From positions 1,791 through 65,790 of the forward strand of contig JAWAYL010000003.1 of NCBI GenBank assembly GCA_038818725.1: DNA of 64,000 nt, read 5' to 3'. The notes below the pieces were generated by a model that was not told where the DNA came from, did no database searches, and saw nothing but the letters and a program-made list of their open reading frames with translations. Numbering within the stretch: position 1 is the stretch's first letter; each line of letters starts with the position of its first letter. This document shows positions 27,120-60,300 of the stretch, piece after piece. The DNA is from Thermoplasmatota archaeon. Lineage in GTDB: Archaea; Thermoplasmatota; E2; UBA202; JdFR-43. Made by a program: the position numbers and the translations under genes.

Positions 27120-30100
27120 ATGAAAGGAAAAGCGAAAATAGCGGTAGGAATTGTGGTGTTATTAGCGATATCTGCGATAAGCTTTGGCATAACAATGCAG
27201 CCACAGCAGAGCAAACCTATAACAAAATTGCAGAAAAAGATAAAAACAACAGATATATCTGGAAATGAAAAAATAGAAAGCTACCTTCTCGACAGCTACA
27301 TAAGGGATGATGGCGAAGAAGCTCTTTTATTTGCTGAAGGAGACGATGCTGGCTATAATGTTGATACAGGAAATGAATTTAAGAGAGCTTTGCCAATCTA
27401 TCCTGGCGAAATTAGGGATTTAGCGCCTGGAAGAAAATTCACTGGACAACTTGATCCAGGAAGGGACAATGAAGACTGGTATTCATTTTCTGTATGTGAA
27501 AAACAAAAGATAAAAGCTACGCTTACCCCCTCTTCAAACTTTGATTTACAGCTTGCAAATCCTAGCGGCTATGTTGTTGCAACTTCAGCAAATGCAGGAA
27601 ATGCTGCGGAAAGCGTTGAATTTACTGCTAACGTGACAGGTTTATGGGCAATTCGCATATATGCAGGGAGCGGAGCAAGCGCTGGCGGCTATACTTTTGA
27701 TGTTAAAATAGAGGGGCAGAACGATGCGGGCACAGGCAAGGATGCTGGAAATAGCATTTCGCAGGCAACAGCAATAACTCCTGGAACATATAATGGATAT
27801 ATGGATATGAATGACTGGGAAGATTGGTATAGCTTTAGTGTTAGTGCTGGGCAGGGAATAAAAGTAGAAATAAAACCAATGCAGAAATCAGATTTTGACA
27901 TACACCTTTATGACCCAACTGGCAAATGGGTTTATAGTGCTCAATATTATGGGAATGATACTCTTGAATATCCAGCAGATAAAAGCGGAACATGGTATAT
28001 AAAAATAGATATGTTCCCAGGATGGGATAAAAGCAAATGGCCAGAAAATTACTTCCTCTATGGCTCTGGAGTATATGAGTTAACATTAACTCTCGGTGTA
28101 TCAGCTGCGCAGCCACCAGGCCCAATTCCACAGCGTGAAATAATTCCTGTTGCACAGACATTTATTGTAAATGATAATCCAAATAGCAATAGCGATGAAT
28201 ATGCATATATAGCTGCTATACCAGCTGCAAACTATATTAAAGATGGAAAGAGATATGTTTCCCCAATTGTTTATAGAGGAGTAAATAAGCAAACTCATTG
28301 GTTTGGAACAGTTGATGATACAACTCAATATTTGCTTGATGATTGGAATACATATCTTGCAAGGCATGGAATGACAGCAAAAGAATATGTATTGAATGCG
28401 GATCCAGTTAAAGCAGCTGCTGAAATAGCAACTACAAAATGGACAAGTTCAAGCACTGCTGTTGTTACTGTAGATGGTAGCGACTTTAGCGATGAAATTA
28501 ATACAATAGTAGACAAAGATGCAACACTTATAGTTAAAACAAAGCAAATGGTTGCTCCAAAAGGAAGTTCAAAACTTAAAGATTTGGGAGGAAAGCAGGC
28601 ATTGCCAATGTTTTTGGATAAGAGCTGGGGAGCAATGACAGTCTATACACATGGCTCTGATTCGCCAGCAGTAGGAATAATAACTCCAAGATATGAGCCA
28701 GGCACTGAAGAAGATTGGCCTCATCCATATGACGCAAGAGGAGACAATACAAATATATACTTCCCTGTTTCAGTCCCAGGGTTATGGATTCCATATGTTG
28801 GTTCAAACTCCGGCGACTGGACGCTTGAAGTAACTGTTTATAGTGGAGATAGATATACAATTCCAATTTCAACAACAGATTGCAGTATAAAAGTTACTGT
28901 AACAACAGATGAGCCAAGCTATTTAGAAGTATTCCTTATTGATCCTTATGCAAATATAAGAGATCCTTCTGTGCCACACTGGAACGGTGGACCAATAAAT
29001 CCAATTCATGTATGGAATGGCGGTCATTGGGAAGGCATAGGATTTGAGAAATGGCGCAGGTGGGAGCCCACATACAGTAAAGAGCATACTGTTGAAGCTC
29101 ATTATCCAATGACAGGAAAATGGACCGCAATTGTTGCTCCTCACTATCCATATGGACAGGAAAAGACAAGCGACTCAATACCATATCATATAAAAATAGA
29201 GGTGAGGCAGCATAATCCAAAGAGAGTTAATGCTGGCTTGTCTGCTGCAAATGCTGCTGTAATTGCTTCATTGAAACATGCTCCATTGCTTTATGTAAAA
29301 GAGGATAGCATACCTCCTGAAACAACAAACGCATTGACAAAGCTTGGAGTATCAAACATAATATTTGTAAATATTGGAAAAGTCAGCTCTGTAAGCTTGC
29401 CAGGAAGTGTTACAGAATATAAGACAATGGCAGAAGTAGTTGATGCAATAAAGAAAGATCCAAAATCAGAAAATTTCATAACAATTACTTCATTTGGCAC
29501 ATTAAATGGCTATTTTGCTCCTGCAGCAATGATTGCAGCATATCATGGTTCACCTGTTTTGAGCATTGGCGAAGCAGCTGAGGCATATGATATACTTGAT
29601 AAAGCAACAACATGGCGCACATATGGTGGAGGATGGTATCACGGATGCAGAGCTCAGGGGCATTTGCCATCAATGAGTGAGCCATTTGACTGGATAGATT
29701 TCTTAAAGGATTTACTTGGAGGAAATATACCAAGCCCAGGCTTTGATTTAGAAAAAAGATGGTTTACCGCAATACATGATGGAATACATAACCTTACACT
29801 TAAATACAATCTTGATTTGCCAGGAAAGGAAGCTTATTTATTTGTTGCAGATAGAGAGGATGATATTCGCCATCTTGCAATACTTGCAATGACAGGAAAT
29901 AATTCCTATGCAGGACAAATAATATTTGACACGCCTGCAATGCAAACCGCGCTGGTATGCAGAGATATATTATATCCAGCAATAATTTATGCAAACCCAG
30001 GAAGGAATGTAACAACTTCTCAGCTGATGAACTTCCCAGATGGAAATACATGGCGCACAAATGATGGAAAATCATATTCAGTATTTTCAAGCCGTGAATT

Positions 30101-30806
30101 AAAGGCGTCATTCAGCTCACATGGAAGATTTTATGAAGGACATTGCATATGGGAAAATCTACTTAAGAGATATAATACAGGAGTAAGCATTAGCTATTAT
30201 TCCGGTCATGGAACAGGAGGAAGCGGAATTTCCGCACAGCCACGCAACTGGGCTGAAGATTTCCCACAAGCAGAGCCGAGATATGAACATTTGCATGATT
30301 TCACATGGTGGGATGGATGGCGAGGATATATGTATGATGACACTCAAACAAAAGATCCAAGATGGGGTGGATTTACATGGTATAATCCAAAAGAACCAAA
30401 TCTATATGACATAATTCACTTCAAGTGGGTTGATCAGCTATTCCAGAATTTGCACAGCGAAATAGAATTATGGATGTCATGCACAACTGGACAGCATTTT
30501 GGTCCAGACATATATCTTGAGCATGGAGCAGCACTTTGGTATGGAAATGCGGGCACAGGACTATGCCCACAGGAAGATTTGCTCGATGATTGGTGGATAC
30601 ATGATTTCCTAGTTGAAGGAAAATCAATAGGAGAAGCATTATCAACATACATATATTTGCATCAGCGCGACTATACAACAGGCGATGATTTTGCAATGTA
30701 TGGTCCATCATCAATGCAGGTTACAAATGTTCAAGTGATCTTTGGAGATCCAACACTTATATGCTATAGCCCAGAATGGGTTGAGCCAACACCAGTAGCA
30801 CCATAA
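27120..30806 (+). CDS. Large secreted protein: two PPC (pre-peptidase C-terminal) domains plus a divergent C25/gingipain-like His-Cys peptidase region
   Basis: GGAGG RBS and signal anchor MKGKAKIAVGIVVLLAISAISFG. PPC signatures EDWYSFSV...FDLQLANPSG and EDWYSFSV...FDIHLYDPTG. Candidate dyad SYYSGHGTGGSG / LWMSCTTGQ. Confidence 0.7.
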   Translation: MKGKAKIAVGIVVLLAISAISFGITMQPQQSKPITKLQKKIKTTDISGNEKIESYLLDSYIRDDGEEALLFAEGDDAGYNVDTGNEFKRALPIYPGEIRDLAPGRKFTGQLDPGRDNEDWYSFSVCEKQKIKATLTPSSNFDLQLANPSGYVVATSANAGNAAESVEFTANVTGLWAIRIYAGSGASAGGYTFDVKIEGQNDAGTGKDAGNSISQATAITPGTYNGYMDMNDWEDWYSFSVSAGQGIKVEIKPMQKSDFDIHLYDPTGKWVYSAQYYGNDTLEYPADKSGTWYIKIDMFPGWDKSKWPENYFLYGSGVYELTLTLGVSAAQPPGPIPQREIIPVAQTFIVNDNPNSNSDEYAYIAAIPAANYIKDGKRYVSPIVYRGVNKQTHWFGTVDDTTQYLLDDWNTYLARHGMTAKEYVLNADPVKAAAEIATTKWTSSSTAVVTVDGSDFSDEINTIVDKDATLIVKTKQMVAPKGSSKLKDLGGKQALPMFLDKSWGAMTVYTHGSDSPAVGIITPRYEPGTEEDWPHPYDARGDNTNIYFPVSVPGLWIPYVGSNSGDWTLEVTVYSGDRYTIPISTTDCSIKVTVTTDEPSYLEVFLIDPYANIRDPSVPHWNGGPINPIHVWNGGHWEGIGFEKWRRWEPTYSKEHTVEAHYPMTGKWTAIVAPHYPYGQEKTSDSIPYHIKIEVRQHNPKRVNAGLSAANAAVIASLKHAPLLYVKEDSIPPETTNALTKLGVSNIIFVNIGKVSSVSLPGSVTEYKTMAEVVDAIKKDPKSENFITITSFGTLNGYFAPAAMIAAYHGSPVLSIGEAAEAYDILDKATTWRTYGGGWYHGCRAQGHLPSMSEPFDWIDFLKDLLGGNIPSPGFDLEKRWFTAIHDGIHNLTLKYNLDLPGKEAYLFVADREDDIRHLAILAMTGNNSYAGQIIFDTPAMQTALVCRDILYPAIIYANPGRNVTTSQLMNFPDGNTWRTNDGKSYSVFSSRELKASFSSHGRFYEGHCIWENLLKRYNTGVSISYYSGHGTGGSGISAQPRNWAEDFPQAEPRYEHLHDFTWWDGWRGYMYDDTQTKDPRWGGFTWYNPKEPNLYDIIHFKWVDQLFQNLHSEIELWMSCTTGQHFGPDIYLEHGAALWYGNAGTGLCPQEDLLDDWWIHDFLVEGKSIGEALSTYIYLHQRDYTTGDDFAMYGPSSMQVTNVQVIFGDPTLICYSPEWVEPTPVAP

Positions 30807-32587: not shown

Positions 32588-33604
32588 ATTTTCAACTGCT
32601 TTGGAAACAAGTTTAACACATTCTTCAAAATCGTTTAAACTAATCATCTCTACGCCTGAATGCATATATCTTGTTGGAACACTTATTACTCCACAAGGAA
32701 TTCCCTCTTTTGTTAGATTTATTGCTGTTGCATCTGTTGTTCCGCCTTCGCCTACTTCAAGCTGATATTTTATTCCCTCTTTTTTTGCTGTTTCCTCAAG
32801 CCACCTAAGCACATTCCTATGAACAATCAATCCACGCCCGCCAGCATCTACAACAGTTATAACCGCGCCGCCATCAACTTTTATGCTTTTCTCTTTTTCA
32901 TCTAAGCCAGGATAATCTTTTGCATTTGCTACCTCGCAAACTATTGCAACGCTTGGGGAAATTTTATAAGCGCTTGTTTTAGCTCCTTTTAGCCCCACTT
33001 CTTCCTGAACTGTCCCAACTGCATATATTTTTGAATTGCTTTTTATTCTTTTAATTGCCTCAATCATCATTGCAATTCCTATTCTATCATCAATCGCTTT
33101 TCCAGTTATTCTATTATTTATTAACTCCTTCATTTCGACATCAAGCGTTATAGGGCTTCCAATCTTTATTCCCTCTTTTTCCACCTCTTCTCTGCTTTTT
33201 GCTCCTATATCTATAAACATTTCCTCCGCTAGAATTGGTTTTTTCTTTTCCTCCTCTTTCATTAAATGAGGTGGCTTTGAGCCAATTATTCCATATCTTT
33301 TTCCCTTCTCACCATGAATAATAACTCTCCTATTTATCAAGCTCTGATCAAACCATCCTCCAATCTTTAAAAATTTTATAAAGCCATCTTCACTTATACT
33401 TTTTACCATAAGTCCAATTTCATCCATGTGGGCGGCGAGCATGATGCTTGGCTCTTCTCCGTCTTTAAAAGCAATTATATTTCCTAAATTATCCACTTCT
33501 ATTTTATCAACAAAATTTTCGAGCTCTTCTTTTATAATCTCTCTTATTTCATCTTCATATCCAGAAATGCCATGAGCATTGCATAGTTTTTTTATTAGTT
33601 CCAT
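32567..33604 (-). CDS. M42-family aminopeptidase (TET/FrvX-like)
   Basis: HMDEIGLMV, DDRIG, VQEEVGLKGA metal-binding motifs; 345 aa. Confidence 0.8.
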   Translation of the reverse strand: MELIKKLCNAHGISGYEDEIREIIKEELENFVDKIEVDNLGNIIAFKDGEEPSIMLAAHMDEIGLMVKSISEDGFIKFLKIGGWFDQSLINRRVIIHGEKGKRYGIIGSKPPHLMKEEEKKKPILAEEMFIDIGAKSREEVEKEGIKIGSPITLDVEMKELINNRITGKAIDDRIGIAMMIEAIKRIKSNSKIYAVGTVQEEVGLKGAKTSAYKISPSVAIVCEVANAKDYPGLDEKEKSIKVDGGAVITVVDAGGRGLIVHRNVLRWLEETAKKEGIKYQLEVGEGGTTDATAINLTKEGIPCGVISVPTRYMHSGVEMISLNDFEECVKLVSKAVENLRFFYE

Positions 33605-35001
33605 GAAGCATATTCCTTGAGAATATTTAAAATTTGCATTGATTTAAAAACATAAATTCTTTTTTCATCCGACCAATTGCTTAAAAAGCCATTCTCATCT
33701 TCGGCAATAACTTTTATTTTATAAATTCCCATTTTGTTCCATGAATGCGTTATTTTAATTTTAATTCCTGATTCATAAAATTCAGTCCATTCATCTACTA
33801 TATTATCATTATTCCAGTCCCATCCGTATCTTATTTTATCTCCATCAAAATCACTTGAAAATGTTTCATAAAAATATTTTTTGCCGGTTATTGCAAAAAT
33901 TCTTCCTTCTGGCTTTTGTGGTTTCTCTGGCTTATAATTTATCTTTTTGGCATATTTTAAATCAAGATTACTCCTGTCAACATAGCTTATATGAGGATAA
34001 CCATTTAAATCAATAGCAATTGATGCATATGCTCCAACATCTCCTTCTTCATCTACTTTTTCTATATGCCATATTCCATCAAAATATGCATAATTTAAAT
34101 TCCATCCTTTCCATCCAAAATATGCAATATGAATTCTTCCATAGCTATCGATTGCAATTGATGCACCTTTTGAATTATAAAATCCTATTAAGTCAGGATC
34201 GATAATTTCTATTTTCCATTTTTTCCCGTCAAAATATGCATGTTTTAAAAACCAAGCATCGTCTCTTGAGATATCATAGTAGCATATATGTGGATTTGAA
34301 TTTTTATCTATTGCAATTGAAGTCGATTCCCATATTATACTATTTTTATCAATTTCTTCTACAACCCATTTGTCTTCTTTTAAAAAAGCATAAAATAATT
34401 TGCCTCTTACATTTCCATAGCTTATATGAGGATTTCCATCTAAATCAACAGCAATTGAAGAATAAATTCCACAACCAGCAGATGAATCAACAACTTCTAT
34501 GCTCTTTTCGTTTCCATAAATTCTTGCATATTTTAAATGCCCATTTTTCTCATCGTAATAGCTTATATGCACAGCATCTTTTGATATAGCAATTGAACAA
34601 TATTTGCCAACATTTTCGGAATCAATTATATCAATTTTCCAAGAGCCGTTCTTTTTTGCATATTTAAGATTTTCATTTGTTGCATCATAATAAACTAAAT
34701 GTAAGCATCCATTTGCATCAACTGCAATTGAGGAATATACCCCAACATCAGCAGATGCATCAACAACTTCAATGCCCCATTTTCCATTAACAAAAGATGC
34801 AACCTTTAAAACCTTGCTATCAATATCATAATAAGAAATATAAATTCTATCTTTATAGATACATATGCTTGTATCCATTCCTATATCTCCTTGCATATCA
34901 ATTGTTTCTATCTCCCACCTTCCATCTTCACTAAAACCTAGAGGTGCAAGAATAAGAAAAGTTGTTAAAATTAAAATCGATTTCATGAAAATAAATAACA
35001 A
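33595..35001 (-). CDS. Secreted protein with about 9 tandem ~45-aa beta-propeller-type repeats and a C-terminal PKD-like domain
   Basis: Signal peptide; repeats of form W.IE.VD..G.VG.YSSIA(I/V)D.NG.PHISYYD...LKYA. C-terminal FSSDFDGD...WDWNNDN. Confidence 0.6.
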   Translation of the reverse strand: MLFIFMKSILILTTFLILAPLGFSEDGRWEIETIDMQGDIGMDTSICIYKDRIYISYYDIDSKVLKVASFVNGKWGIEVVDASADVGVYSSIAVDANGCLHLVYYDATNENLKYAKKNGSWKIDIIDSENVGKYCSIAISKDAVHISYYDEKNGHLKYARIYGNEKSIEVVDSSAGCGIYSSIAVDLDGNPHISYGNVRGKLFYAFLKEDKWVVEEIDKNSIIWESTSIAIDKNSNPHICYYDISRDDAWFLKHAYFDGKKWKIEIIDPDLIGFYNSKGASIAIDSYGRIHIAYFGWKGWNLNYAYFDGIWHIEKVDEEGDVGAYASIAIDLNGYPHISYVDRSNLDLKYAKKINYKPEKPQKPEGRIFAITGKKYFYETFSSDFDGDKIRYGWDWNNDNIVDEWTEFYESGIKIKITHSWNKMGIYKIKVIAEDENGFLSNWSDEKRIYVFKSMQILNILKEYASWN

Positions 35002-35174: not shown

Positions 35175-35828
35175 TTAATAGCCCTCTGAATAAAGAACAT
35201 CTGGGTAGCTATATTTATTTAGCCATGTATCGCCTGGCAGTATTTTTACTTTCCTTCCTTCCACTATTAGCCTCTTCTTTTCAAATAAATCTATGCTTCT
35301 TGGCAATATTTGATGCTCAACTTTTAAAATTCTCTCTGCAAGAGCGTCGCGAGTGTCATCTTCTCTTACTTTTACTGCTGCCTGCAAAATTATTGGACCA
35401 TGATCTGGCAATTCATCCATAAAATGGGTTGTGCAACCGGCTATTTTAACTCCATAATCTAAAGCCTGCTTTTGGGCATCTATTCCTTTAAAAGAAGGAA
35501 GCAAGGAAGGATGAATATTTATTATCTTATATCTCCATTTATTAATAAACCAAGGTGAAAGTATGCGCATATATCCTGCGCCAACAATAAGTTCAATATT
35601 TTTCTCTTCAAATATTCTATTTATTTCTTCCTCATGCTTTCTTTTATCCTTTGCCTCTACATATATTGCATCTATTCCATTTTTTCTTGCTCTTTCAAGA
35701 GCAAAAGCATTTTCATTATCACTTATCACTACTTCTACTCTTGCATTTATCATTTTTTTGTTACAAGCATCTATTATTGCTTGTAGATTTGTTCCTCTTC
35801 CAGAAGCAAGGACTCCAACAGCGAGCAT
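35175..35828 (-). CDS. purN: Phosphoribosylglycinamide formyltransferase PurN
   Basis: VLASGRGTNLQAIID, IINIHPSLLPSFKG and HFMDELPDHGPIILQ formyltransferase motifs. Confidence 0.8.
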   Translation of the reverse strand: MLAVGVLASGRGTNLQAIIDACNKKMINARVEVVISDNENAFALERARKNGIDAIYVEAKDKRKHEEEINRIFEEKNIELIVGAGYMRILSPWFINKWRYKIINIHPSLLPSFKGIDAQKQALDYGVKIAGCTTHFMDELPDHGPIILQAAVKVREDDTRDALAERILKVEHQILPRSIDLFEKKRLIVEGRKVKILPGDTWLNKYSYPDVLYSEGY

Positions 35829-35858: not shown

Positions 35859-37328
35859 TTGTATTTCATTTCAATGAAATTTGATTTGAAATGCAGCATT
35901 ACTACAAGCAAGGAAATAAAAAAAGAAGAGCTTGCTCATTTTTTCAATAACCTTACAATTGATGCAAAAATGGAATGGGATGCAAAAGAAAATAAAATTT
36001 TTTTAAGAATAATTTCTGAAAAAAGGAGAAGTCATGAGTGGGCTTTAAGAATAGTAAAAAAGCTTGAAGAATTTCTTGGAAAAATGAAAATTGGAATAAG
36101 GGATTTGCATCTTGACAGATATGAAATTGATTTTGAATTAGATAAGGAGCCATTAAAAAGTGTATCAATTCCATTTGCTGAAGTTGAAATAAAAGATAAG
36201 AAAGTAAAATTAATTATTTCTGATAAAGGAGAGGAATTTTTAAGGGAAAACTATGCTGATAGAATAATAAAAAGAATAAAAGAAAAAATAGATGCTCAAT
36301 ATTATGAAGGCAAAAAAGAATACTGGCATTTAGTCTGGCAAAGTGAGGAAAAAAAGGAAGCATGGAATAAAGATCCTTCTGAGGAAATGCTCAATTTGGG
36401 ATGGATAAAGTTGATGGGCAAAGGCAAATGGTTTTATTTCCCGCCAGCCGCAGCCATCATGCGGGCGATGGAAAGAATTGCAATAAATGAAGTAATTGCT
36501 CCCATTGGCTTTTCAGAGATAATTCAGCCAATGCATGTCTCATTTGATACTTGGCTTAAAACCGGGCATCTTGAAGGAATGCCAGGAGAAATTTATTATA
36601 TATGCGAGCCGAAGAGCAGGGAAGCGAGGGAATGGGAAAATTTTGTTGATTTAATTAAAATAAAAAGAGAAGTAAGCGATGAAGAGCTAATTAAAAATTT
36701 AAAGCCGCCAAAAGAAGGAGTTTGCTATGCCCAATGTCCAAATATCTATGCTTCTTTTGCTGGAAAGACAATTGCTGAAGAAAGTTTACCATTGCTTATA
36801 TTTGATCATTCCACTCCTTCAGATAGATATGAAGCAGGGGGCAAGCATGGTATTGAAAGAGTTGATGAATTTCATAGAATAGAAATTGTATATATTGGAA
36901 CAAAAGAACAACTTATAGAAGTAAGAGAAAAACTTATGGAGAGGTATAGATATGTGTTTGACAAAATACTTGATTTGGAATGGAGAATGGCAAAAGTAAC
37001 CCCTTTTTATTTACAGCAGGCTGGCATAACCGCTAGCGAGGAAGATGAAATAAAAGGAACAATAGATTTCGAGGCATATTTGCCTTATAGAGGGGATAGA
37101 AGCAAAGAATGGCTTGAAATACAGAATATTTCAATAGTTGGAGATAAATATGTAAAAGCATTTAATATAAAGGCCCAGAAAAGTGAGTTATGGAGTGGTT
37201 GCTCAGGAATTGGCTTAGAAAGATGGACAGTTGCATTTCTTGCTCAAAAAGGGATAGAGCCAGAAAAATGGCCGCAAGGTTTTAGAAGATATTTGCCAAA
37301 TTTACCAAAAATGCCAAAATTTTTGTAG
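35859..37328 (+). CDS. Class II aminoacyl-tRNA synthetase-like protein, resembling the atypical methanogen-type seryl-tRNA synthetase (or an amino acid:carrier-protein ligase homolog)
   Basis: Motif-3-like SGCSGIGLERWTVAFL near the C-terminus, with Cys adjacent as in the Zn-dependent mSerRS. Motif-2-like EPKSREAREWENF. About 489 aa with a charged N-terminal domain. Confidence 0.5.
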   Translation: MYFISMKFDLKCSITTSKEIKKEELAHFFNNLTIDAKMEWDAKENKIFLRIISEKRRSHEWALRIVKKLEEFLGKMKIGIRDLHLDRYEIDFELDKEPLKSVSIPFAEVEIKDKKVKLIISDKGEEFLRENYADRIIKRIKEKIDAQYYEGKKEYWHLVWQSEEKKEAWNKDPSEEMLNLGWIKLMGKGKWFYFPPAAAIMRAMERIAINEVIAPIGFSEIIQPMHVSFDTWLKTGHLEGMPGEIYYICEPKSREAREWENFVDLIKIKREVSDEELIKNLKPPKEGVCYAQCPNIYASFAGKTIAEESLPLLIFDHSTPSDRYEAGGKHGIERVDEFHRIEIVYIGTKEQLIEVREKLMERYRYVFDKILDLEWRMAKVTPFYLQQAGITASEEDEIKGTIDFEAYLPYRGDRSKEWLEIQNISIVGDKYVKAFNIKAQKSELWSGCSGIGLERWTVAFLAQKGIEPEKWPQGFRRYLPNLPKMPKFL

Positions 37329-37396
37329 TTTAATTAAAATTTAATTCAATTAAATTTTTATTTAAAAAATTATTTTATTTTTTAAATCTTATATTT

Positions 37397-38767
37397 TTGA
37401 TGCTTGAAATTGAAAAAGATTTAAAAAGTAAAATTGATAGAATACTAAAAAATTATTTACCAGATAAAATATCAAATCCTTCAGAAAAAGCAATTTATGA
37501 ACCATCAAGCATGTATAACATGCCAAAAGAAAAGGCAGATGAATACAGATTTAATGCGATAAAATATGTTTTTAAACATCATTACGAAAATAATAAGTTT
37601 TATCGAAGCTTATGCAAGGAAAAAAATGTTAAGCCAGATGATATAAAAAGTATTGAAGATTTTAATAAGATACCTTTAATAACCCATAAATTCTTTAAAG
37701 ATTATCCTAATGGAAAAGATTTTGCAATATGGCTTGCAAATTTAATGTCTGTAGAAATTCCAAAAGTAGTTATAAAGGGTAAAAATCCATCATATGATGA
37801 TGTTATTGAAGCATTTCAGCAAGCTGGCATAACAGTTTGCTATAGCAGTGGAACAACTGGAAAATTCACATTTATTCCAAGAGATGAAAAAACTTATAGG
37901 ATGGGACAATATGCAATTGCAAGATGCGCAATAGAGATGCTCAGCAGCTGGTATGATTATGATGCAAGCGCCTATTTACTATTTCCTAACCCAAAGAAAA
38001 CAAACATTTATGTAGGAAAGGTAACAAATGTTTTATTTGATTTAATTAAAGATGTAAAAGTGGCAATAGACAGAAAAATAACAACCCAATTGCTTCGTAT
38101 TTCAATGGGTGTAGCATTTACTTTCAAAGAAAAAATGATGAGCAAGATGGCAAGGCATGCAACCAAAAAAATGAACGAAGAAATGGTAGAAAATATAATT
38201 TCTTGGGCAGAAGAAAAAAATGAAAAGAAGGAAAGATGCGGACTTGTTGGCGCCCCATTTATTTTGCATATGGTAATGGAAAAGATGATTGAAGAAGGAA
38301 AAAGATTCGATTTTGGAGAAAATGGGGCGGTGCTTACTGGTGGGGGATGGAAAATATATGAAGGCAAAAGATTGCCAGTTAAGGAATTTAGAGAAAAAGT
38401 TGAGCATCTTTTTGGCATACCCAAAGAAAATTGCCTTGATTTATATGGAATGGTTGAAGCAAATGGTTTTATGATTCATTGTCCAGAAGGGCACTATTTG
38501 CATATCCCTAATACTTATCTTCATCCAATAGTTTTAGATGAAAATGGTGAAGAAGTAGCTTATGGAGAGGAAGGAAGATTTGCCTTTCTTGATGCCATTG
38601 CTTTAAGTTATCCTGGTTTCATAGTAACTGGTGATAAAGTTAGGATACACGAAACATGTCCAGCATGCAACAGGACAACACCTGTGCTTGAGCCAGAGAT
38701 AGAGAGAATAAGGGGAGAAGAAATTAGAGGGTGTGCTGAAGAAATGAGGAAGTTAATGCTTGAGTAA
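37397..38767 (+). CDS. Adenylate-forming enzyme of the LuxE / PaaK (coenzyme F390 synthetase-like) family with C-terminal zinc ribbon
   Basis: AMP-binding motif YSSGTTGKFTFIP. LuxE/PaaK-like size (456 aa). CPACNRT...GCAEE C-terminus. Confidence 0.55.
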   Translation: MMLEIEKDLKSKIDRILKNYLPDKISNPSEKAIYEPSSMYNMPKEKADEYRFNAIKYVFKHHYENNKFYRSLCKEKNVKPDDIKSIEDFNKIPLITHKFFKDYPNGKDFAIWLANLMSVEIPKVVIKGKNPSYDDVIEAFQQAGITVCYSSGTTGKFTFIPRDEKTYRMGQYAIARCAIEMLSSWYDYDASAYLLFPNPKKTNIYVGKVTNVLFDLIKDVKVAIDRKITTQLLRISMGVAFTFKEKMMSKMARHATKKMNEEMVENIISWAEEKNEKKERCGLVGAPFILHMVMEKMIEEGKRFDFGENGAVLTGGGWKIYEGKRLPVKEFREKVEHLFGIPKENCLDLYGMVEANGFMIHCPEGHYLHIPNTYLHPIVLDENGEEVAYGEEGRFAFLDAIALSYPGFIVTGDKVRIHETCPACNRTTPVLEPEIERIRGEEIRGCAEEMRKLMLE

Positions 38768-39728
38768 TATGATATCCTGGATAGAAAAAGGATATATAAT
38801 GCCGTGGAGAATGTTTAAAAATGTAATAAGAACTATGCCAGCTCTTGCCATAACGATGGCAAAGCATCCTCGCCTTGTGATTCAGCAGCATAGAGGGGAA
38901 AAAGTAAAATGGTTTAAAAGCAAGCCAAGTTATGAAATACCAGAATATAAGGAAGGAATGAAGTTCTGCAAATCAAATGAAAGATATCTTCGCCCAACCC
39001 ATCTCTGCAATAGCCATGCAAAAGAGATAATTGCAATGGCAAATGAGCTTGGAGCTTTTAAAAAAGATGATTGGGAATATGCGGAAAGTGTTTTTAATTT
39101 TGTAAAGAGGAATATAAAGCTCGCATTTGTCCCAATGACGGGCGTTGTCGAAACACTTAAAAACGGTTGCGGGACATGTGTTCATCAACTTTCTCTTTTT
39201 GCTGCCCTCTGCAGGGCGGGCGGGCTGAAGGCGAGATATCATTTATATACGCTTGCCCTTATAGAGCCAATGTATAAGGCAATGGTTGAAGTTTCTCCAA
39301 TTGTTAAAGGATGGTATGATGCTTTTGGAACTTTTATGCTCCATGGAACAGCACAAGTAATGATAGATGGTAAATGGGTAGTTGCTGACCCAACATTTAC
39401 TCCAGCAGATGAGGCTGCTATGGGCATCCCTATTGCAAAACTTGGAGATGAGCCAACTGGAATATGGAATTATCCAGTTAAAGATACAGAAGTCTTTCTT
39501 GAAGGTCTTCCATATGGTGTAGGCATAGGATGGGATTTCTTTGTAAAAATTCTTGGTCCAAAGGAAGCGCAGAAAGTAAATGAAAGCTTGGAAAGAGAAA
39601 GGAAAAAAGGAGAAAAAATATTGCAGGAGATGGGAGAAGAAAATTATGATAGAATGGTAAGGGAAAAATACAAGGCAAAAATACCAAAAATAACTCTCGA
39701 AAAGTGCCCTAATATAGTGTTTAAATGA
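38760..39728 (+). CDS. Transglutaminase-like superfamily protein (Cys-His-Asp core)
   Basis: GCGTCVHQLSLFAALCRAGGLKARY (catalytic Cys in the TGase-like core). HGTAQVMIDGKWVVADPT supplies the His/Asp. 8-nt overlap with the upstream gene. Confidence 0.65.
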   Translation: MSNMISWIEKGYIMPWRMFKNVIRTMPALAITMAKHPRLVIQQHRGEKVKWFKSKPSYEIPEYKEGMKFCKSNERYLRPTHLCNSHAKEIIAMANELGAFKKDDWEYAESVFNFVKRNIKLAFVPMTGVVETLKNGCGTCVHQLSLFAALCRAGGLKARYHLYTLALIEPMYKAMVEVSPIVKGWYDAFGTFMLHGTAQVMIDGKWVVADPTFTPADEAAMGIPIAKLGDEPTGIWNYPVKDTEVFLEGLPYGVGIGWDFFVKILGPKEAQKVNESLERERKKGEKILQEMGEENYDRMVREKYKAKIPKITLEKCPNIVFK

Positions 39729-40189
39729 AATTTTTATGTGATGAAATGCTTGGCAGGCTTGCAAAATGGCTTCGTATTATGGGTTATGATGTTTTATATT
39801 TAAAAAATATGGAAGATGAAAAAATAGTTGAAAAAGCAATAAAGGAGGATAGAATTTTGATTACAAGAGATAAAAAACTTGCCAAAAAATTCAAAAATTC
39901 TCTTTATATTGAAGAAAAAGATATAAATGAGCAGATAAAAAAAGTGGTTGAAAAACTTAAAATAAGAATTGATGAAGAAAATTTTCTTTCAAGATGCACT
40001 ATTTGCAATATTGAAATAGAAAAAATAGAAAAAGAAAAAGTTAAAGGAAAAGTTCCAGATAATGTTTTTGAAAATATGAGTGAATTTTGGATATGCAAAA
40101 AGTGCGGGCGCATCTACTGGGCTGGCACCCACTGGAAAAACATGAAGGAGAAAATAGAAGAAATAGGAAAAATAGAGTCAGCAATTTGA
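39725..40189 (+). CDS. Mut7-C (DUF82) PIN-like RNase domain protein with C-terminal zinc ribbon
   Basis: MKFLCDEMLGRLAKWLRIMGYDV is the canonical Mut7-C N-terminus. CTICN...CKKCG ribbon. Confidence 0.7.
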   Translation: MKFLCDEMLGRLAKWLRIMGYDVLYLKNMEDEKIVEKAIKEDRILITRDKKLAKKFKNSLYIEEKDINEQIKKVVEKLKIRIDEENFLSRCTICNIEIEKIEKEKVKGKVPDNVFENMSEFWICKKCGRIYWAGTHWKNMKEKIEEIGKIESAI

Positions 40190-40221: not shown

Positions 40222-41013
40222 ATGGATTTCTTACAAAACTTTAATCCAGTAATGCAGGCATTTATTGCATCTTCCTTTACATGGCTTTTAACTGCATTTG
40301 GATCATCAATTGTTTTTCTTACTAAAAAAATGAGCAGGAAATTGCTGGACAGCATGCTTGGTTTTGCTGCTGGTATAATGATTTCCGCAAGCTTCTGGTC
40401 ATTGCTTTTGCCTTCTGTTGAAATGATGGAGGGAAAAAATTTTTCATGGCTTCCAGCTTTAATGGGGTTTCTGCTTGGAGGAGTGTTTATTTTGATTATG
40501 GATAAAATTCTTCCACATCTTCACTTTGGGTATGAGAAGGCAGAGGGTTTAAAAACAAGCTGGCATAAAACAACATTGCTTATTCTTGCAATAACATTAC
40601 ATAATATACCAGAAGGAGTTGCAATTGGTGTTGCTTTTGGAGCAGTTGCATATGGTGCTTCTTATTCATCAGCCATTACTCTAGCAATAGGTATTGGCTT
40701 ACAAAATTTTCCTGAAGGAATAGCTGTTTCTATGCCTTTAAAAGGGGAAGGAATCTCGTCACTAAAAAGTTTCTTTTATGGGCAACTTTCAGCAATCGTT
40801 GAGCCAATTTTTGCAGTTTTAGGAGCATTTGCAGTTTTTATTTTTAAATCAATTCTTCCATATGCTCTCGCTTTTGCGGCTGGAGCAATGATTTTTGTTG
40901 TTGTTGAAGAAATTATTCCAGAATCGCAAAGGGGAGGAAATATTGATTTGGCTACAGTTTCAGCTATGCTTGGATTTGCTACAATGATGTTTCTGGATGT
41001 TGCCTTTGGATAA
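40222..41013 (+). CDS. zupT: ZIP-family zinc transporter (ZupT-like)
   Basis: HNIPEGVAIGVAF and GLQNFPEGIAVS metal-binding motifs. Internal M chosen so as not to overlap Mut7-C. Confidence 0.8.
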   Translation: MDFLQNFNPVMQAFIASSFTWLLTAFGSSIVFLTKKMSRKLLDSMLGFAAGIMISASFWSLLLPSVEMMEGKNFSWLPALMGFLLGGVFILIMDKILPHLHFGYEKAEGLKTSWHKTTLLILAITLHNIPEGVAIGVAFGAVAYGASYSSAITLAIGIGLQNFPEGIAVSMPLKGEGISSLKSFFYGQLSAIVEPIFAVLGAFAVFIFKSILPYALAFAAGAMIFVVVEEIIPESQRGGNIDLATVSAMLGFATMMFLDVAFG

Positions 41014-42997: not shown

Positions 42998-43113
42998 GGC
43001 CCGGGCCGGGATTTTCAAGCAACTTGCTTTAATGCGCAACTTGCACAAGTTGCAGTTTGAACCCGGGTCAAGGGATCCACAGTCCCTTATGTTACCGCTA
43101 CACCACCCAGGCC
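42998..43113 (-). tRNA. tRNA-His (anticodon GTG, encoded G-1) with a 44-nt T-loop intron (plus-strand 43012-43055)
   Basis: Reverse complement reads G-GCCTGGG...AGGGA-CTGTGGA-TCCCT...CCGGG-TTCAAA-[CTGCAACTTGTGCAAGTTGCGCATTAAAGCAAGTTGCTTGAAAA]-T-CCCGG-CCCGGGC-C. Confidence 0.75.
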
Positions 43114-49585: not shown

Positions 49586-51448
49586 TTAAGGATATCCTCC
49601 TATTTTTAAGCTTGGGTCGCCTAGCAATACCCATTCCTCAACTGTTTTACAATCAATCACATCTTTCATTGGGTCGCGAACCGCTATATAGTCAATTATT
49701 GCAGTTCCCCATGCTTCACCGAGCATATCTTTTCCTTTAGCTCCGTATGCACGGAAAAATCTCTCTTCTATGAATCCGCCAAAGTATTCAACTTCGTCCG
49801 GCACACCATTTTTGTTGTCATCATATCCACCTCCATGCCCATAGCCCAAGCCAGTGTTTCCAAAAGTGGCTATTGCTCCTTTATTTGCCATCTTCACTAA
49901 ATGCCAGCTAAAGCATTCATATGTTGGCTGATATGTCCATGGATTTTGCAGATCATCAAGCAAGCTTATATTAAATTCGCTGTTATGGCATCCTCCTATA
50001 ACTACAATTGGCTGCTTTTCTCCATTGCTAAGTAAATCCATATTGTAGGTCATCAATCCATTTACCCATGGTCCTTCTCCATTTTTGAAATGAGTTGCCC
50101 ATGCAGTTGGACTTCCATGTCCATCCATCGCAACAAAACCAAAGCCATTGCTCCAAGTTTTTATTACATTTATCCATGCAAATCTGCCAGCAAGAGGAGC
50201 AGGTTCAACATGTCCATATGTAAGGGTTCCATCAGATACATATAAACTTGTTTTAACAAACTTGCTCGCCATATAGTTATTATAGAACCAAGAAGTAGAA
50301 ACTTCTCCTTCAAAAACATCATTTCCTCCAAAAGTATCTCCTCCAATTAAAAGCATCTTTTTAAACCATTCTTTGCCATATGCATTGTTTTCATAATTAA
50401 CTATTTTATCAATCACATTCTGCAATTCCTTCAAGCTTTGACAAGCAAGTCTACCAACATATACATCTGGAGCTAAATCCAGCTTATCTTTTCCATATTT
50501 AAATGACCAAGCTCCAAAAACACCATCTCCATTTGTATCCCATGAAGAGAATGAGCCATCCGCATTATATATATCTGCAAAATATAAATCGCTTAAATAT
50601 CCAAATTCTTCCCGATCATCAAGAGCAGCATATCTTACAGGACAGTACCATAGAGCATCGTTGCTTGTTGTGGCTCCGTCCATCCCCCAGTTGCCGGTGA
50701 GATATGATCTTTTACCACCTACAAGCATAACATATTTTATTCCATATTTTTCGAGCACATCTTTTATGAAATACTTCACTTTTTCTGCACCATCCCTTCC
50801 TTCATAATTTGAATAAATGTTTTCAACCTTCTCAGAAATTACTCTTAAACCTTTTTCCTCTTTGTGTTGAATCAACCTTGCTATTTCATTTTCCCATTCT
50901 GAAGGATATATTATTAGCAAATCTTTTTCACTTTCACTCACCCCTTTATTTGGCAAATCGTGTGTAATTTTAATTTCAAAATCATTTGCTATTTCAACCA
51001 TATTCTCTTTTGCAATGTACCTCACTGGATATAAATGAATTGCAACAATCGTAGATAGCTTGCCTTCATAAAGCCCACCATATTCATTAATGGTATACCA
51101 TTCCTGTGGATATATTTCATATGCTTCACCATCCCCTTCATATTTTATATTTGTTCCATATGCGACCGCAGGCGGAGCGACAATTATGCTTGCTTTCTTC
51201 TTTTCTATTCCTTTTGGATTGCACTCTATGCTAACCTTTGTTCCAAGAGGAAACACATATGTTTTTACATAATAGGGCAACATTGGTTTTCCTGGAGATG
51301 AAGTATAGTAAGCATCGCTGTATTTTCCCCCATATATTTCCGCATATTCAATTTCTTCAAAATTTTTTGTGCTTTTTCTGTTATCCAAGCTTACAGCACT
51401 TAAAACAAGCATCATTAAAACTATTCCTGCTATACCTACTTTCCTCAT
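49586..51448 (-). CDS. Secreted peptidase C25 (gingipain-like) family protein
   Basis: Signal peptide. YVMLVGG, DVYVGRL, MDGHGSPTAW (His) and VVIGGCHNSEF (Cys), closely resembling the gingipain catalytic motifs. Confidence 0.8.
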   Translation of the reverse strand: MRKVGIAGIVLMMLVLSAVSLDNRKSTKNFEEIEYAEIYGGKYSDAYYTSSPGKPMLPYYVKTYVFPLGTKVSIECNPKGIEKKKASIIVAPPAVAYGTNIKYEGDGEAYEIYPQEWYTINEYGGLYEGKLSTIVAIHLYPVRYIAKENMVEIANDFEIKITHDLPNKGVSESEKDLLIIYPSEWENEIARLIQHKEEKGLRVISEKVENIYSNYEGRDGAEKVKYFIKDVLEKYGIKYVMLVGGKRSYLTGNWGMDGATTSNDALWYCPVRYAALDDREEFGYLSDLYFADIYNADGSFSSWDTNGDGVFGAWSFKYGKDKLDLAPDVYVGRLACQSLKELQNVIDKIVNYENNAYGKEWFKKMLLIGGDTFGGNDVFEGEVSTSWFYNNYMASKFVKTSLYVSDGTLTYGHVEPAPLAGRFAWINVIKTWSNGFGFVAMDGHGSPTAWATHFKNGEGPWVNGLMTYNMDLLSNGEKQPIVVIGGCHNSEFNISLLDDLQNPWTYQPTYECFSWHLVKMANKGAIATFGNTGLGYGHGGGYDDNKNGVPDEVEYFGGFIEERFFRAYGAKGKDMLGEAWGTAIIDYIAVRDPMKDVIDCKTVEEWVLLGDPSLKIGGYP

Positions 51449-57357: not shown

Positions 57358-60300
57358 GTGATTGAAATGGCAGCATATAAAAAAATGGGTATAATTTTTT
57401 TAAGTATATTGATGCTAACATCGACTTTTCCAGTTTATAGCGGCTCTAGCCGAGGTGAAAACCTGGAAAATAGTGAAACACTTCTGTATAAAATAAATTT
57501 TCCAGAGCCATCCCTTAAAGAAATTGAGGTGAATGGAAAAGAGTTTACTATAGTAGAGATACCTGATTGTATTAATACCGGCAAAAGTGGAGCCCCCTCC
57601 TTGCCTGTGTATGGTGTGCAGATTCTTCTTCCTTATGGAAGTGAATTAGAAGAAGTAAAAGTAAAAGGTGAAAAAACCGCGATATCAACAAATCTTAGGG
57701 GGAAACCAGTATTTCCATACCAAGAGCCTGTGCCCATTGGATATAAGGGAAAGGAATTTTTCATTGATGAAAATGCTTATAAAATTGAAAAATATCCTGA
57801 AAAAATTTACGATGTTATAGGAGTTGGATATTGTAGAGGATATGCAATACTTGCAATGAATTTATTCCCTGTAGAGTATTATCCCGTAGAAGGGGAGTTA
57901 TTTTACTATCCATTAATTGAAATAGAATTAAAATTAAATAAGAACGGTTATGTAAATGAGTTTTACAGAAATAATCCGAATGATAGAAGTTATGTTGCTT
58001 CTCTTGTAATTAACCCAGAGATATTAGATTCTTATAAAGTAAAAAGCGTATTTGAATATCCTGGAGGAATTTGCGATCCTTCACAAAATTATGACTATGT
58101 AATAATCACCAGACAGGCACTTGCAAACTTCTCCGGAAATTATACCTGGGCACATTTCATCGCAAGGAAGCAGGCGGAAGGAATTCAGGCAATAGTAGTT
58201 ACAGTAGAAGATATTGTAGCATGCCAAGCTTATTGGAACACAACTCCTATTTTTAATGATACCCCAGCAAAAATAAGGGAATTTTTGAGAGATGCTTATA
58301 TTGACTGGGGGATTGAATATGTTCTTATTGCTGGAGATAATGATGGAAGTGCTATGGTTCAAAGAAGATTGCTTCACTATGGAACAGGAGCATATGCAGA
58401 AAATGTTGACTCAGATTTATATTGGAGCAACCTTGATAATACATTCAATAGTGATATGGATAGTCAGTGGGGAGAATCAGATGATTCAGGATTCGATTTG
58501 TATTCAGAACTATTTATAGGAAGTATACCATGCGATACTGGAACAGATATTTCAAACTGGCTCACAAAAAGCTTTTATTATGCAGACTCAATGGAAAAGG
58601 ATTATCTTGAAAATGTTGGATTTTATGGAGGAGATACAGGATGGGCATGCCAAGGAGATGACTTTATGGATTTCACGTTGTATGGCACAAATAATTGGCT
58701 GGGTCCGGATCCAAATTATGATGGTCCGTGGCCAAGCTGGCTTGGCTTCCTCTATGGTTTCGACACATGGAATTTATCAAATCCAGGAATGGAATTCAAT
58801 ACAAGCGTTAGATGGACTGCTGAGCCGCCGAATCAAGGATGGCAAGGTGGCTCTGAATCTGCTGCAATTGCTGGTTTGAGAAATGCAATAAATAATAATC
58901 TCTGTGCAATTATAAATGGTATAGCCCATGCTAACGAGCATATGTCTCTGGATGTATATGATACAGAATGGGAGTCACAATATTTCAATACAAAACCATT
59001 TTTCATACATGATTACGGATGTCATTGTGGAGATATGGATGCAACAGATGATGGTGTGCTTCATTCAATGCTTTTCCATTCAAATATAGAGCTTGCTTTT
59101 GCATGCGTTTATAATACAGGATATGGATGGGGAAATTATTATTCAACAAATTCAAGTAGTGCATTGCAACAAAAATTATTCTGGGATTACATGCTCAATA
59201 CAAGCAAGTGTGGCGGAGTAATAAACTGGCGCCTTGGAAAAGCGCAAGCCTATTCAAAAGATGCAATGGCTCCTACTATAAATTGGGATCCTGGATATGA
59301 GACCTGGCGAGGAATTATCGAAAGCTGTCTGCTGTTTGGTGATCCTCATCAATTAATCAAGCCGCCAGAACTTCCAGAGCATAATGTAGGGGTTGTCTCC
59401 CTTAAAGTAGATGACCATGTTTTACCTGGTGAGCAGGTTTATATAAATGCAACTATAATAAATAGTGGCTTGAACAATGAAACAAATGTTATTGTAAGAT
59501 GTCGTATAAATGAAACAGAGATAGGAAATATAACAATTCCATTTTTCCAAAGCCAAACAATGCAAGAAGTAAGCTTTTTATGGATTCCAGCAATGGGATG
59601 GTATAATGTTGTTATAAACGTAACTATTCCAGGGGTAGAAGAAAATATCACTGTAGATAATGAAAAGAGCAAAGTTGTTGTTGCTGGGCCTGATGTCGCA
59701 GTTTCTTCAATAGATACACCTGTTTTTGCATCGGTTGGTACTATTACTGAAATAAAAGCTACTTTAAGCAATTTGGGAAAAGAGGATGAAATAGTCACCG
59801 TAAAAATAGTTGTAAACAATGTAACAGTAGATAATATTTCATTGATTTTGCAAGGGAGAAGGACAGAGAATATTTCATTGTTATGGAATCCTACCTATGA
59901 AGGATTTTATCCTGTAAAAATAGAAGTATTATGCGCAAATGATGTATATCCTGAAAATAACTTCAGAAGCAATAATGTAAATGTTGTAACTGCTTTAGGA
60001 TATGTTCTTCTTGTGGATGATGATAAAGGAGACAATTATGAAATTTATTACGAAAATGCATTGATGGCAGCTGGTTATGTTTATACTCTATGGAATAGGG
60101 ATGCGCAAGGAGTACCATCTCCTTCTTATATGGCAACATTTACAGCGGTTGTATGGTTTACTGGAGACGATTATACAACAACATTAACAGCCGAAGATAT
60201 AAATGCCCTTACAACTTATCTAAACAATGGAGGTAAATTGTTTATAACAGGCCAAGATATAGGTTTTGATATAAATACGGATCCTTTCTATAGCAATTAT

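Follow-up and report, generated by a model that had tools for sequence, protein, structure and literature searches.

A conserved LuxE-like and transglutaminase-like gene pair in Thermoplasmatota, found beside a methanogen-type seryl-tRNA synthetase gene

The bioluminescence enzyme LuxE forms an acyl-AMP and then a thioester on its own Cys364, a reaction that needs Lys238 and Arg355, as described from cryo-electron microscopy of the LuxC-LuxE complex (PMC9157457). Cys364 lies in a flexible C-terminal motif, TRxxKGCxLS, and this tail brings the acyl group to Cys296 of LuxC (PMC9157457). A related step is known from CtaG, BtrH and AdmF, enzymes of the papain/transglutaminase fold whose Cys receives the acyl group of a protein thioester before its transfer to an amine (PMC7183216). 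Here, we analyzed a locus in which a LuxE-like protein and a transglutaminase-like protein are encoded side by side. It lies in a 64,000-nucleotide stretch of DNA from a Thermoplasmatota archaeon (assembly GCA_038818725.1, contig JAWAYL010000003.1, positions 1,791 to 65,790 of the forward strand), referred to below as the window, where the pair is preceded by a gene for a seryl-tRNA synthetase (SerRS) and followed by a Mut7-C gene. The two middle genes form a conserved unit that is essentially inseparable across Thermoplasmatota. Our best explanation for the locus, which we hold with about as much belief as doubt, is that a housekeeping SerRS stands beside a separate two-enzyme module that acts as a Cys-to-Cys acyl relay ending in an amide.

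The original prediction for this locus, made from the sequence alone, described four tightly packed genes and suggested a ligation-plus-processing system built from all of them or, alternatively, a SerRS lying next to unrelated genes. Our open reading frame (ORF) and domain calls recovered the four co-directional genes on the + strand at the coordinates it gave, now refined to 35874-40189, with the same four assignments (SerRS, LuxE/PaaK-like, transglutaminase-like and Mut7-C); the motifs WSGCSGIGLERW and SSGTTGK were both present. The likely starts were set by identical database proteins (P0001 and P0241) and by direct reading of the codons. The LuxE/PaaK-like adenylate-forming enzyme is encoded at 37400..38767 (+), giving 455 aa from the likely ATG at 37400 within a 456-aa ORF. 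The transglutaminase-like gene follows at 38769..39728 (+) and yields 319 aa from the likely ATG at 38769, a product identical to P0241, or 322 aa from a TTG at 38760. Consequently, the 8-nt overlap that had been reported between the two genes requires a start at the upstream TTG; from the annotated ATG, a 1-nt spacer separates them.

We surveyed 91 loci for the pair, 84 of whose LuxE-like genes, all from species-level genomes, had enough flanking sequence to be informative downstream. Both genes lay within ~1.3 kb of each other in 84 of these 84 loci, and in 81 they were directly adjacent, twice in reversed order. In the other three a single, oppositely oriented epimerase gene stood between them. 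The six apparent exceptions to adjacency consist of one ORF-calling artefact, the two reversed orders and the three single-gene insertions. An unbiased clustering of the flanking ORFs from all 91 loci returned only two near-universal families, the LuxE-like and the transglutaminase-like proteins themselves (89 and 85 of 91), followed by Nramp-like proteins (26), Mut7-C (21) and SerRS (12), while the other neighbours varied from locus to locus. The same clustering revealed no third universal gene and no conserved gene for a small carrier protein or peptide beside the pair; the original prediction had proposed to look for such an ORF nearby. From locus to locus, the partners' bit scores rise and fall together (Spearman 0.87). 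Many Thermoplasmatota metagenome-assembled genomes (MAGs) carry two or three paralogous pairs, as seen for L008 and L039, L009 and L040, L010 and L041, L015 and L042, and L017 and L043 (surveyed loci are given here by their L numbers), and the pair also occurs in Methanomassiliicoccales-like genomes (L088, L089). In the literature, we found no publication describing a pairing of these two proteins.

Next to each other on a 2.58-Mb contig, two tandem pairs were observed in L090 (L090:4603-10187); beside them lie three UbiA prenyltransferase genes and one for a polyprenyl synthase. These neighbours may indicate an isoprenoid-lipid connection.

The LuxE-like protein belongs to PF04443 (LuxE), which it matches at 85.2 bits against a gathering score of 24.9, and its N-terminal region is similar to PaaK. 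With HMMER it aligned to the LuxE structure 7XC6 at E=6e-20. In this alignment, K318 of the TGGGWK motif (38351-38353, +), R436 (38705-38707, +) and Cys445 in the C-terminal tail sequence RGCAEE (38732-38734, +) correspond to Lys238, Arg355 and Cys364 of LuxE, and the P-loop spans S149-K155 (37844-37864, +). Of the 86 LuxE-like genes surveyed, 84-86 retain K318, C445 and the P-loop, and K318, R436 and C445 are all invariant in alignment A2. The AlphaFold2 (AF2) model of the protein has a predicted local distance difference test (pLDDT) score of 89.6 (that of its transglutaminase-like partner scores 89.5), and its last 25 residues are less confident than the core, as would fit a mobile tail. 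Despite these shared residues, the protein scores 89.6 against the 550-bit cut-off of the NCBIfam LuxE equivalog NF052244, and neither a LuxC-like nor a luciferase gene was found in the 91 loci. It is therefore a PF04443 member with the LuxE catalytic residues, not a LuxE orthologue. The PaaK equivalog models matched only residues 45-113, with 47 against 700 bits and 39 against 646 bits.

A search for the LuxE-like family gave 596 matches, and a separate scan found it in 216 species-level genomes, nearly all members being from Thermoplasmatota MAGs, with a mean alignment-column identity of 65%; its named records mostly read 'hypothetical protein'. Two of the 80 best loci, both on short contigs, carry other labels: L062, a 2.4-kb contig labelled Bacteroidales bacterium, and L081, labelled Methanomicrobia. 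Mis-binning is the likely cause, the LuxE-like gene being typical of the Thermoplasmatota family. We also observed an invariant Cys/His cluster in this family, C361/H365/H368/C420/C423 (38480-38503 and 38657-38668 in the window), which coincides with none of the LuxE catalytic residues considered and suggests a possible metal site, structural or catalytic.

The transglutaminase-like protein matches PF01841 (Transglut_core) at 46.7 bits, against a cut-off of 23. Numbered in the 322-aa (TTG) frame, it carries the residues of a putative Cys-His-Asp triad, read from the sequence: Cys140 (39177-39179), His195 (39342-39344) and Asp210 (39387-39389), all on the + strand. Further conserved residues include R78, C83, R152, R159, W206 and E248. 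Cys140 is kept in all genuine partners, and positions 195 and 210 co-vary, being His/Asp in 50 proteins and Glu/His in 23, a swap that would most simply be explained by selection keeping a Cys/His/acid centre. Foldseek matched the AF2 model to 3ISR with a probability of 1.0, and also to TglA, transglutaminases and arylamine N-acetyltransferases (NATs). The fold matches, which include transglutaminase-like proteins, NATs and papain-like proteins, cover the core only, at a template modelling (TM) score of ~0.3; the remainder of the model consists of family-specific N- and C-terminal elements. A PDB search with the sequence returned nothing significant. The protein is a PF01841 member without a close structural or characterised relative, and its family is small, with 87 representatives at E<=1e-30 among 1.84 billion.

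In L075, a 1,147-codon ORF (L075:2642-6085) joins the N-terminus of a transglutaminase-like protein to a papain C1 peptidase and a lectin-like domain. This could be a real fusion, or it could reflect a missed stop or a frameshift.

Our model for the pair is as follows. The LuxE-like enzyme would adenylate a carboxylic acid and, as in LuxE, move the acyl group onto Cys445 of its own C-terminal tail. From the tail, the acyl group would go to Cys140, invariant in the transglutaminase-like partner, which would transfer it to an amine acceptor to give an amide. This model has its direct support in the gene pairing, in the retention of LuxE's Lys, Arg and Cys, and in the conserved Cys-centred triad of the partner. 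From these residues, and by analogy with the enzymes described above, we infer the self-thioesterification, the Cys-to-Cys transfer and the amide outcome, and any identity proposed for the acid and the acceptor would be of the same kind. The data gave no support for an aminoacyl-tRNA or a carrier protein as a participant, and no carrier-protein gene was found near the pair.

The upstream gene was analyzed in the same way. SerRS, of the methanogen type and Zn-dependent, is encoded at 35874..37328 (+), giving 484 aa from the likely ATG at 35874; the ORF is extendable to a TTG at 35859, which gives the 489-aa form. The 489-aa ORF contains PF18490 (tRNA_bind_4; E=5e-21, residues 6-146) followed by a class II core. 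It matched NF002120, the NCBIfam model for methanogen-type SerRS, over its full length with 485.5 bits, under the 611-bit cut-off, and scored 250.9 bits with TIGR00415, under the cut-off of 489.55. Against the Methanosarcina barkeri SerRS structure 2CIM, it aligned at E=5e-125 with 44% identity over 449 residues. We take the Zn ligands of the M. barkeri enzyme to be Cys306, Glu355 and Cys461. The residues aligned to them, allowing for a 20-residue tag offset in 2CIM, are identical in the window, namely the putative Zn-ligand residues C288 (36735-36737), E337 (36882-36884) and C443 (37200-37202), all on the + strand. No variation was seen at these three positions, or at the arginines of motifs 2 and 3, in 117 of 117 family members. 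Thus, the proposed likeness to the Zn-dependent SerRS was upheld, and the window enzyme is a divergent Thermoplasmatota branch of the methanogen-type family.

The original prediction had also taken this type of SerRS to be confined to methanogens, a view that is out of date. The family contains 1,510 homologues, and the 120 of them that were listed all come from uncultured archaea, every source name being a Thermoplasmat* lineage and most given protein names reading serine--tRNA ligase. Fournier et al. 2015 (PMC4427996) had already noted the methanogen-type enzyme in a lineage related to Thermoplasmatales, and neither the kind of enzyme nor its host range is therefore new. The idea that it might instead be an amino acid:[carrier protein] ligase could be discarded, since the tRNA-binding domain is present and NF005479 scores 59.8 against a 357-bit cut-off; the ligase structures 3MEY and 4H2W matched at only E ~1e-4 in the PDB search. 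No second SerRS was found within the window. Judged by these sequence features, SerRS is most likely the archaeon's ordinary translation enzyme. It is worth noting that the 484-aa product is identical to P0001, which NCBI names 'aminoacyl--tRNA ligase-related protein' while its 87%-identical orthologues are named serine--tRNA ligase, probably because the Thermoplasmatota branch scores below the equivalog hidden Markov model cut-offs.

Several points weigh against the combination of a housekeeping SerRS and a separate relay. The LuxE-like model superposes on PaaK-type adenylating enzymes over the whole fold (TM ~0.6), so the acyl group could go to coenzyme A (CoA) rather than to the enzyme's own Cys. 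Because His195 and Asp210 vary, a simple papain-type triad does not hold for every member of the partner family, and the transglutaminase-like protein could equally be a hydrolase. Adjacency to SerRS is frequent in the window's own subclade, at about 8 of 11 loci, where a clade-specific functional link to SerRS may exist. The whole-fold match to PaaK-family CoA ligases, along with the matches of PaaK and F390 synthetase models to the N-terminal region, also favours a version of the same pathway that lacks direct acyl hand-over. Here, the LuxE-like protein would be a ligase of the PaaK/F390-synthetase type making an acyl-CoA or another adenylate-derived product, and its partner, acting before or after it, would be a hydrolase or peptidase, or else a NAT-like, acyl-CoA-dependent N-acyltransferase; NATs, which use acyl-CoA, are among the partner's fold matches, and many Transglut_core proteins are annotated as proteases. 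However, an invariant LuxE-specific C-terminal Cys accompanied by the Lys and Arg is hard to explain for a CoA ligase, and the strict adjacency and co-divergence of the two genes indicate close coupling. We consider such an uncoupled pathway unlikely, yet plausible enough to be taken seriously. The progression from adenylate to Cys thioester, to a second Cys thioester and finally to an amide is, on the other hand, also the logic of ubiquitin-like conjugation, and transglutaminases form isopeptide bonds. The pair could in that case be an E1/E2-like tagging system, in which the LuxE-like protein activates the carboxylate of a peptide or protein, C-terminal or in a side chain, and its partner ligates it to a target lysine or removes it; several paralogous pairs per genome would suit several tags or targets. 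As PaaK/LuxE-type enzymes of the ANL superfamily are known to act on small-molecule acids, and as the loci share no conserved gene for a small tag or peptide beside the pair and contain no E1, E2 or JAMM homologue, we regard tagging as highly improbable.

The remaining explanation is the four-gene system of the original prediction, in which SerRS, the pair and Mut7-C would serve a tRNA- or aminoacyl-dependent ligation and processing pathway. In its favour, SerRS and Mut7-C are both RNA-related genes; SerRS immediately precedes the pair in 10 species-level genomes of one subclade and Mut7-C immediately follows it in 14, and the 4-nt overlap between the transglutaminase-like stop and the Mut7-C start, a real ATGA as had been proposed, is retained in at least 10 related species-level genomes. 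The wider survey argues against it. Of the 68 LuxE-like genes whose upstream sequence extends to 1.6 kb or more, 10 have SerRS directly upstream, all in subfamily A (10/23, against 0/45 in subfamily B), and 58 lack it there, including those of the close relatives L008 and L009. There, FEN-1/Hjc-like or other genes occupy the place of SerRS, and the LuxE-like, transglutaminase-like and Mut7-C genes remain together. SerRS in turn occurs elsewhere without the pair: in L002 and L003, where it is 69% and 60% identical to the window enzyme, it sits amid unrelated, largely housekeeping genes (for ribosomal proteins, CysRS and PheRS), and neither a LuxE-like nor a transglutaminase-like gene is close by. 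The whole block from PurN to iPGM is syntenic in L001, but at 87% SerRS identity this says little about functional linkage. Between SerRS and the LuxE-like gene there is a 71-nt spacer (37329..37399, +), very AT-rich and containing T-runs and, by eye, TATA-like stretches; it fits separate transcription of SerRS and could house a terminator and a promoter dividing the two transcription units. SerRS also retains every feature of a translational enzyme, and Mut7-C directly follows the pair in 14 of the 27 loci of subfamily A and is never directly adjacent in subfamily B. We give the four-gene pathway the smallest chance of the explanations considered. Because of the contexts at 60-69% identity, the upstream survey and the replacements in L008 and L009, SerRS is ruled out as a core member of the module, and we conclude that it is a neighbour kept by synteny in one shallow clade. 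In this respect, the proposed ligase and transglutaminase system stands for the middle pair and falls for SerRS, and the alternative of a SerRS beside unrelated genes is the better reading of SerRS itself and fails for the conserved middle two genes.

Mut7-C, a PIN-like nuclease with a Zn-ribbon, is encoded at 39725..40189 (+; 154 aa) and matches PF01927 with 179.7 bits over residues 1-143 of 154. Only in the window's clade does it join the cluster as a third gene, and the overlapping codons there suggest that it is probably co-translated with the pair. Thus, neighbourhood conservation, which the original prediction had proposed to survey for all four genes, holds for the pair, with SerRS and Mut7-C both clade-specific. 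A scan with the PADLOC models of known anti-phage defence systems gave no match for the four proteins except a chance-level 15.5 bits for Mut7-C.

A fifth co-directional gene, given here as context only, begins 32 nt 3' of Mut7-C and encodes a ZIP-family divalent-metal transporter (40222..41013, +; 263 aa); it adjoins the cluster only in the window and in its closest relative, L001. In subfamily B, 23 of 49 loci have a gene for an Nramp-like multi-pass membrane protein directly after the pair (for example, L006:9370-10665 and L007:9403-10866). A link of the pair to metals through these neighbours is only speculative, because the Nramp-like Pfam match is marginal (29-33 bits around a 29.8-bit cut-off) or absent, and it may be synteny only. 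Close relatives have a B12-binding radical SAM gene (DUF4070) 3' of Mut7-C (L008:8590-10791), with homologous sites occupied in L010, L011, L014-L016, L018, L019 and L023; in L008 a small radical SAM gene precedes it. A B12-type radical SAM gene also lies 6 kb from SerRS in L003 (L003:600-1880). Neither radical SAM gene was found in the window.

The window itself has a G+C content of ~33% and carries archaeal genes (aIF2 alpha, aIF2 gamma, diphthine synthase, HMG-CoA reductase, PAC2 and an archaeal prepilin peptidase), and its proteins have their closest database matches in MAGs named 'Candidatus Thermoplasmatota archaeon'. Divergent from SerRS and 45 nt from its start is a gene for a PurN-type folate-dependent glycinamide ribonucleotide (GAR) formyltransferase (35175-35828, -; TIGR00639, 216 bits), which is syntenic in L001 and 3 kb off in L013. 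Very large predicted surface or secreted proteins are abundant (181-2988, 12606-14897, 27120-30806, 33595-35001, 49586-51448 and 57358-62523), with PKD, Big, BNR and MAM-like domains, a C25 gingipain-like peptidase and one ORF of 1,721 codons; C25 peptidases recur beside the pair in L004. A tRNA-His(GTG) of 71 nt was called by ARAGORN at 43042-43112 on the - strand, of which Rfam matched only 43060-43112 (31.7 against a 29-bit threshold).

What these results mean differs for the two parts of the locus. The SerRS part is ordinary and confirms the 'methanogen-type' enzyme as the widespread form of SerRS in uncultured Thermoplasmatota. The pair, in contrast, is a two-enzyme module that is strongly conserved, often in several copies per genome, within an abundant archaeal phylum, and its sequence features supply a concrete, testable mechanism: adenylation, a thioester on Cys445, transfer to Cys140 and formation of an amide. 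Its importance is at present potential. If the relay is real, the 'acyl-protein synthetase' chemistry of the LuxE type would reach beyond bioluminescence to a new partner fold, and the relay would point to an acylated product not yet known in Thermoplasmatota. The more ambitious proposal that the pair is a new, carrier-protein-free and E1-E2-like acyl relay, installing an amide-linked modification on a protein, lipid or metabolite as a characteristic of Thermoplasmatota, is rather improbable on present evidence. Possible links of such a relay are to metal handling, from the ZIP and Nramp-like neighbours, or to isoprenoid lipids, from the UbiA and polyprenyl synthase genes of L090.

Compared with the M. 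barkeri SerRS (2CIM/2CJ9), the window enzyme has the same PF18490 N-terminal domain and class II core, and the aligned Zn-ligand residues and the arginines of motifs 2 and 3 are identical at 44% overall identity; it differs in coming from Thermoplasmatota rather than from a methanogen and in falling below the NCBI equivalog cut-offs. The original prediction had likened the locus to the ATP-grasp/transglutaminase-like peptide-modification systems, which reportedly combine ATP-dependent carboxylate activation with a transglutaminase fold. The pair likewise joins an ATP-dependent, carboxylate-activating enzyme to a transglutaminase-fold protein, but its activating enzyme comes from another superfamily and would work through an acyl-adenylate and a thioester, not an acyl-phosphate. 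Moreover, no ATP-grasp, alpha-E or other signature component was present in the window or the surveyed loci, and the analogy was not borne out.

With LuxE (7XC6; PMC9157457), the LuxE-like protein shares an ANL-type core, the TGGGWK lysine, the Arg and a short tail with the acyl-accepting Cys, here predicted from the alignment. In both cases, the partner is encoded next door and has an essential Cys of its own in LuxC, to which the invariant Cys140 would correspond here. The differences are a length greater by ~80 residues, an inserted helix (residues 242-275), a PaaK-like N-terminal region and the extra invariant cluster C361, H365, H368, C420 and C423; in addition, the partner has a transglutaminase fold, whereas LuxC is an aldehyde-dehydrogenase-like reductase. 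With AdmF (andrimid), BtrH (butirosin) and CtaG (closthioamide) (PMC7183216), the transglutaminase-like protein has in common a Cys-centred fold, a proposed acyl transfer from thioester to amine and an acid that is first activated by an ATP-dependent enzyme. Those enzymes use phosphopantetheinyl carrier proteins and belong to sporadic bacterial biosynthetic clusters for secondary metabolites; here, no carrier is encoded, the donor thiol would be the adenylating enzyme's own Cys, and the pair is conserved, often in several copies, across an archaeal phylum. The pair, itself uncharacterised, would join two known principles, a self-acylating adenylase of the LuxE type and a thioester-fed transacylase of the transglutaminase fold.

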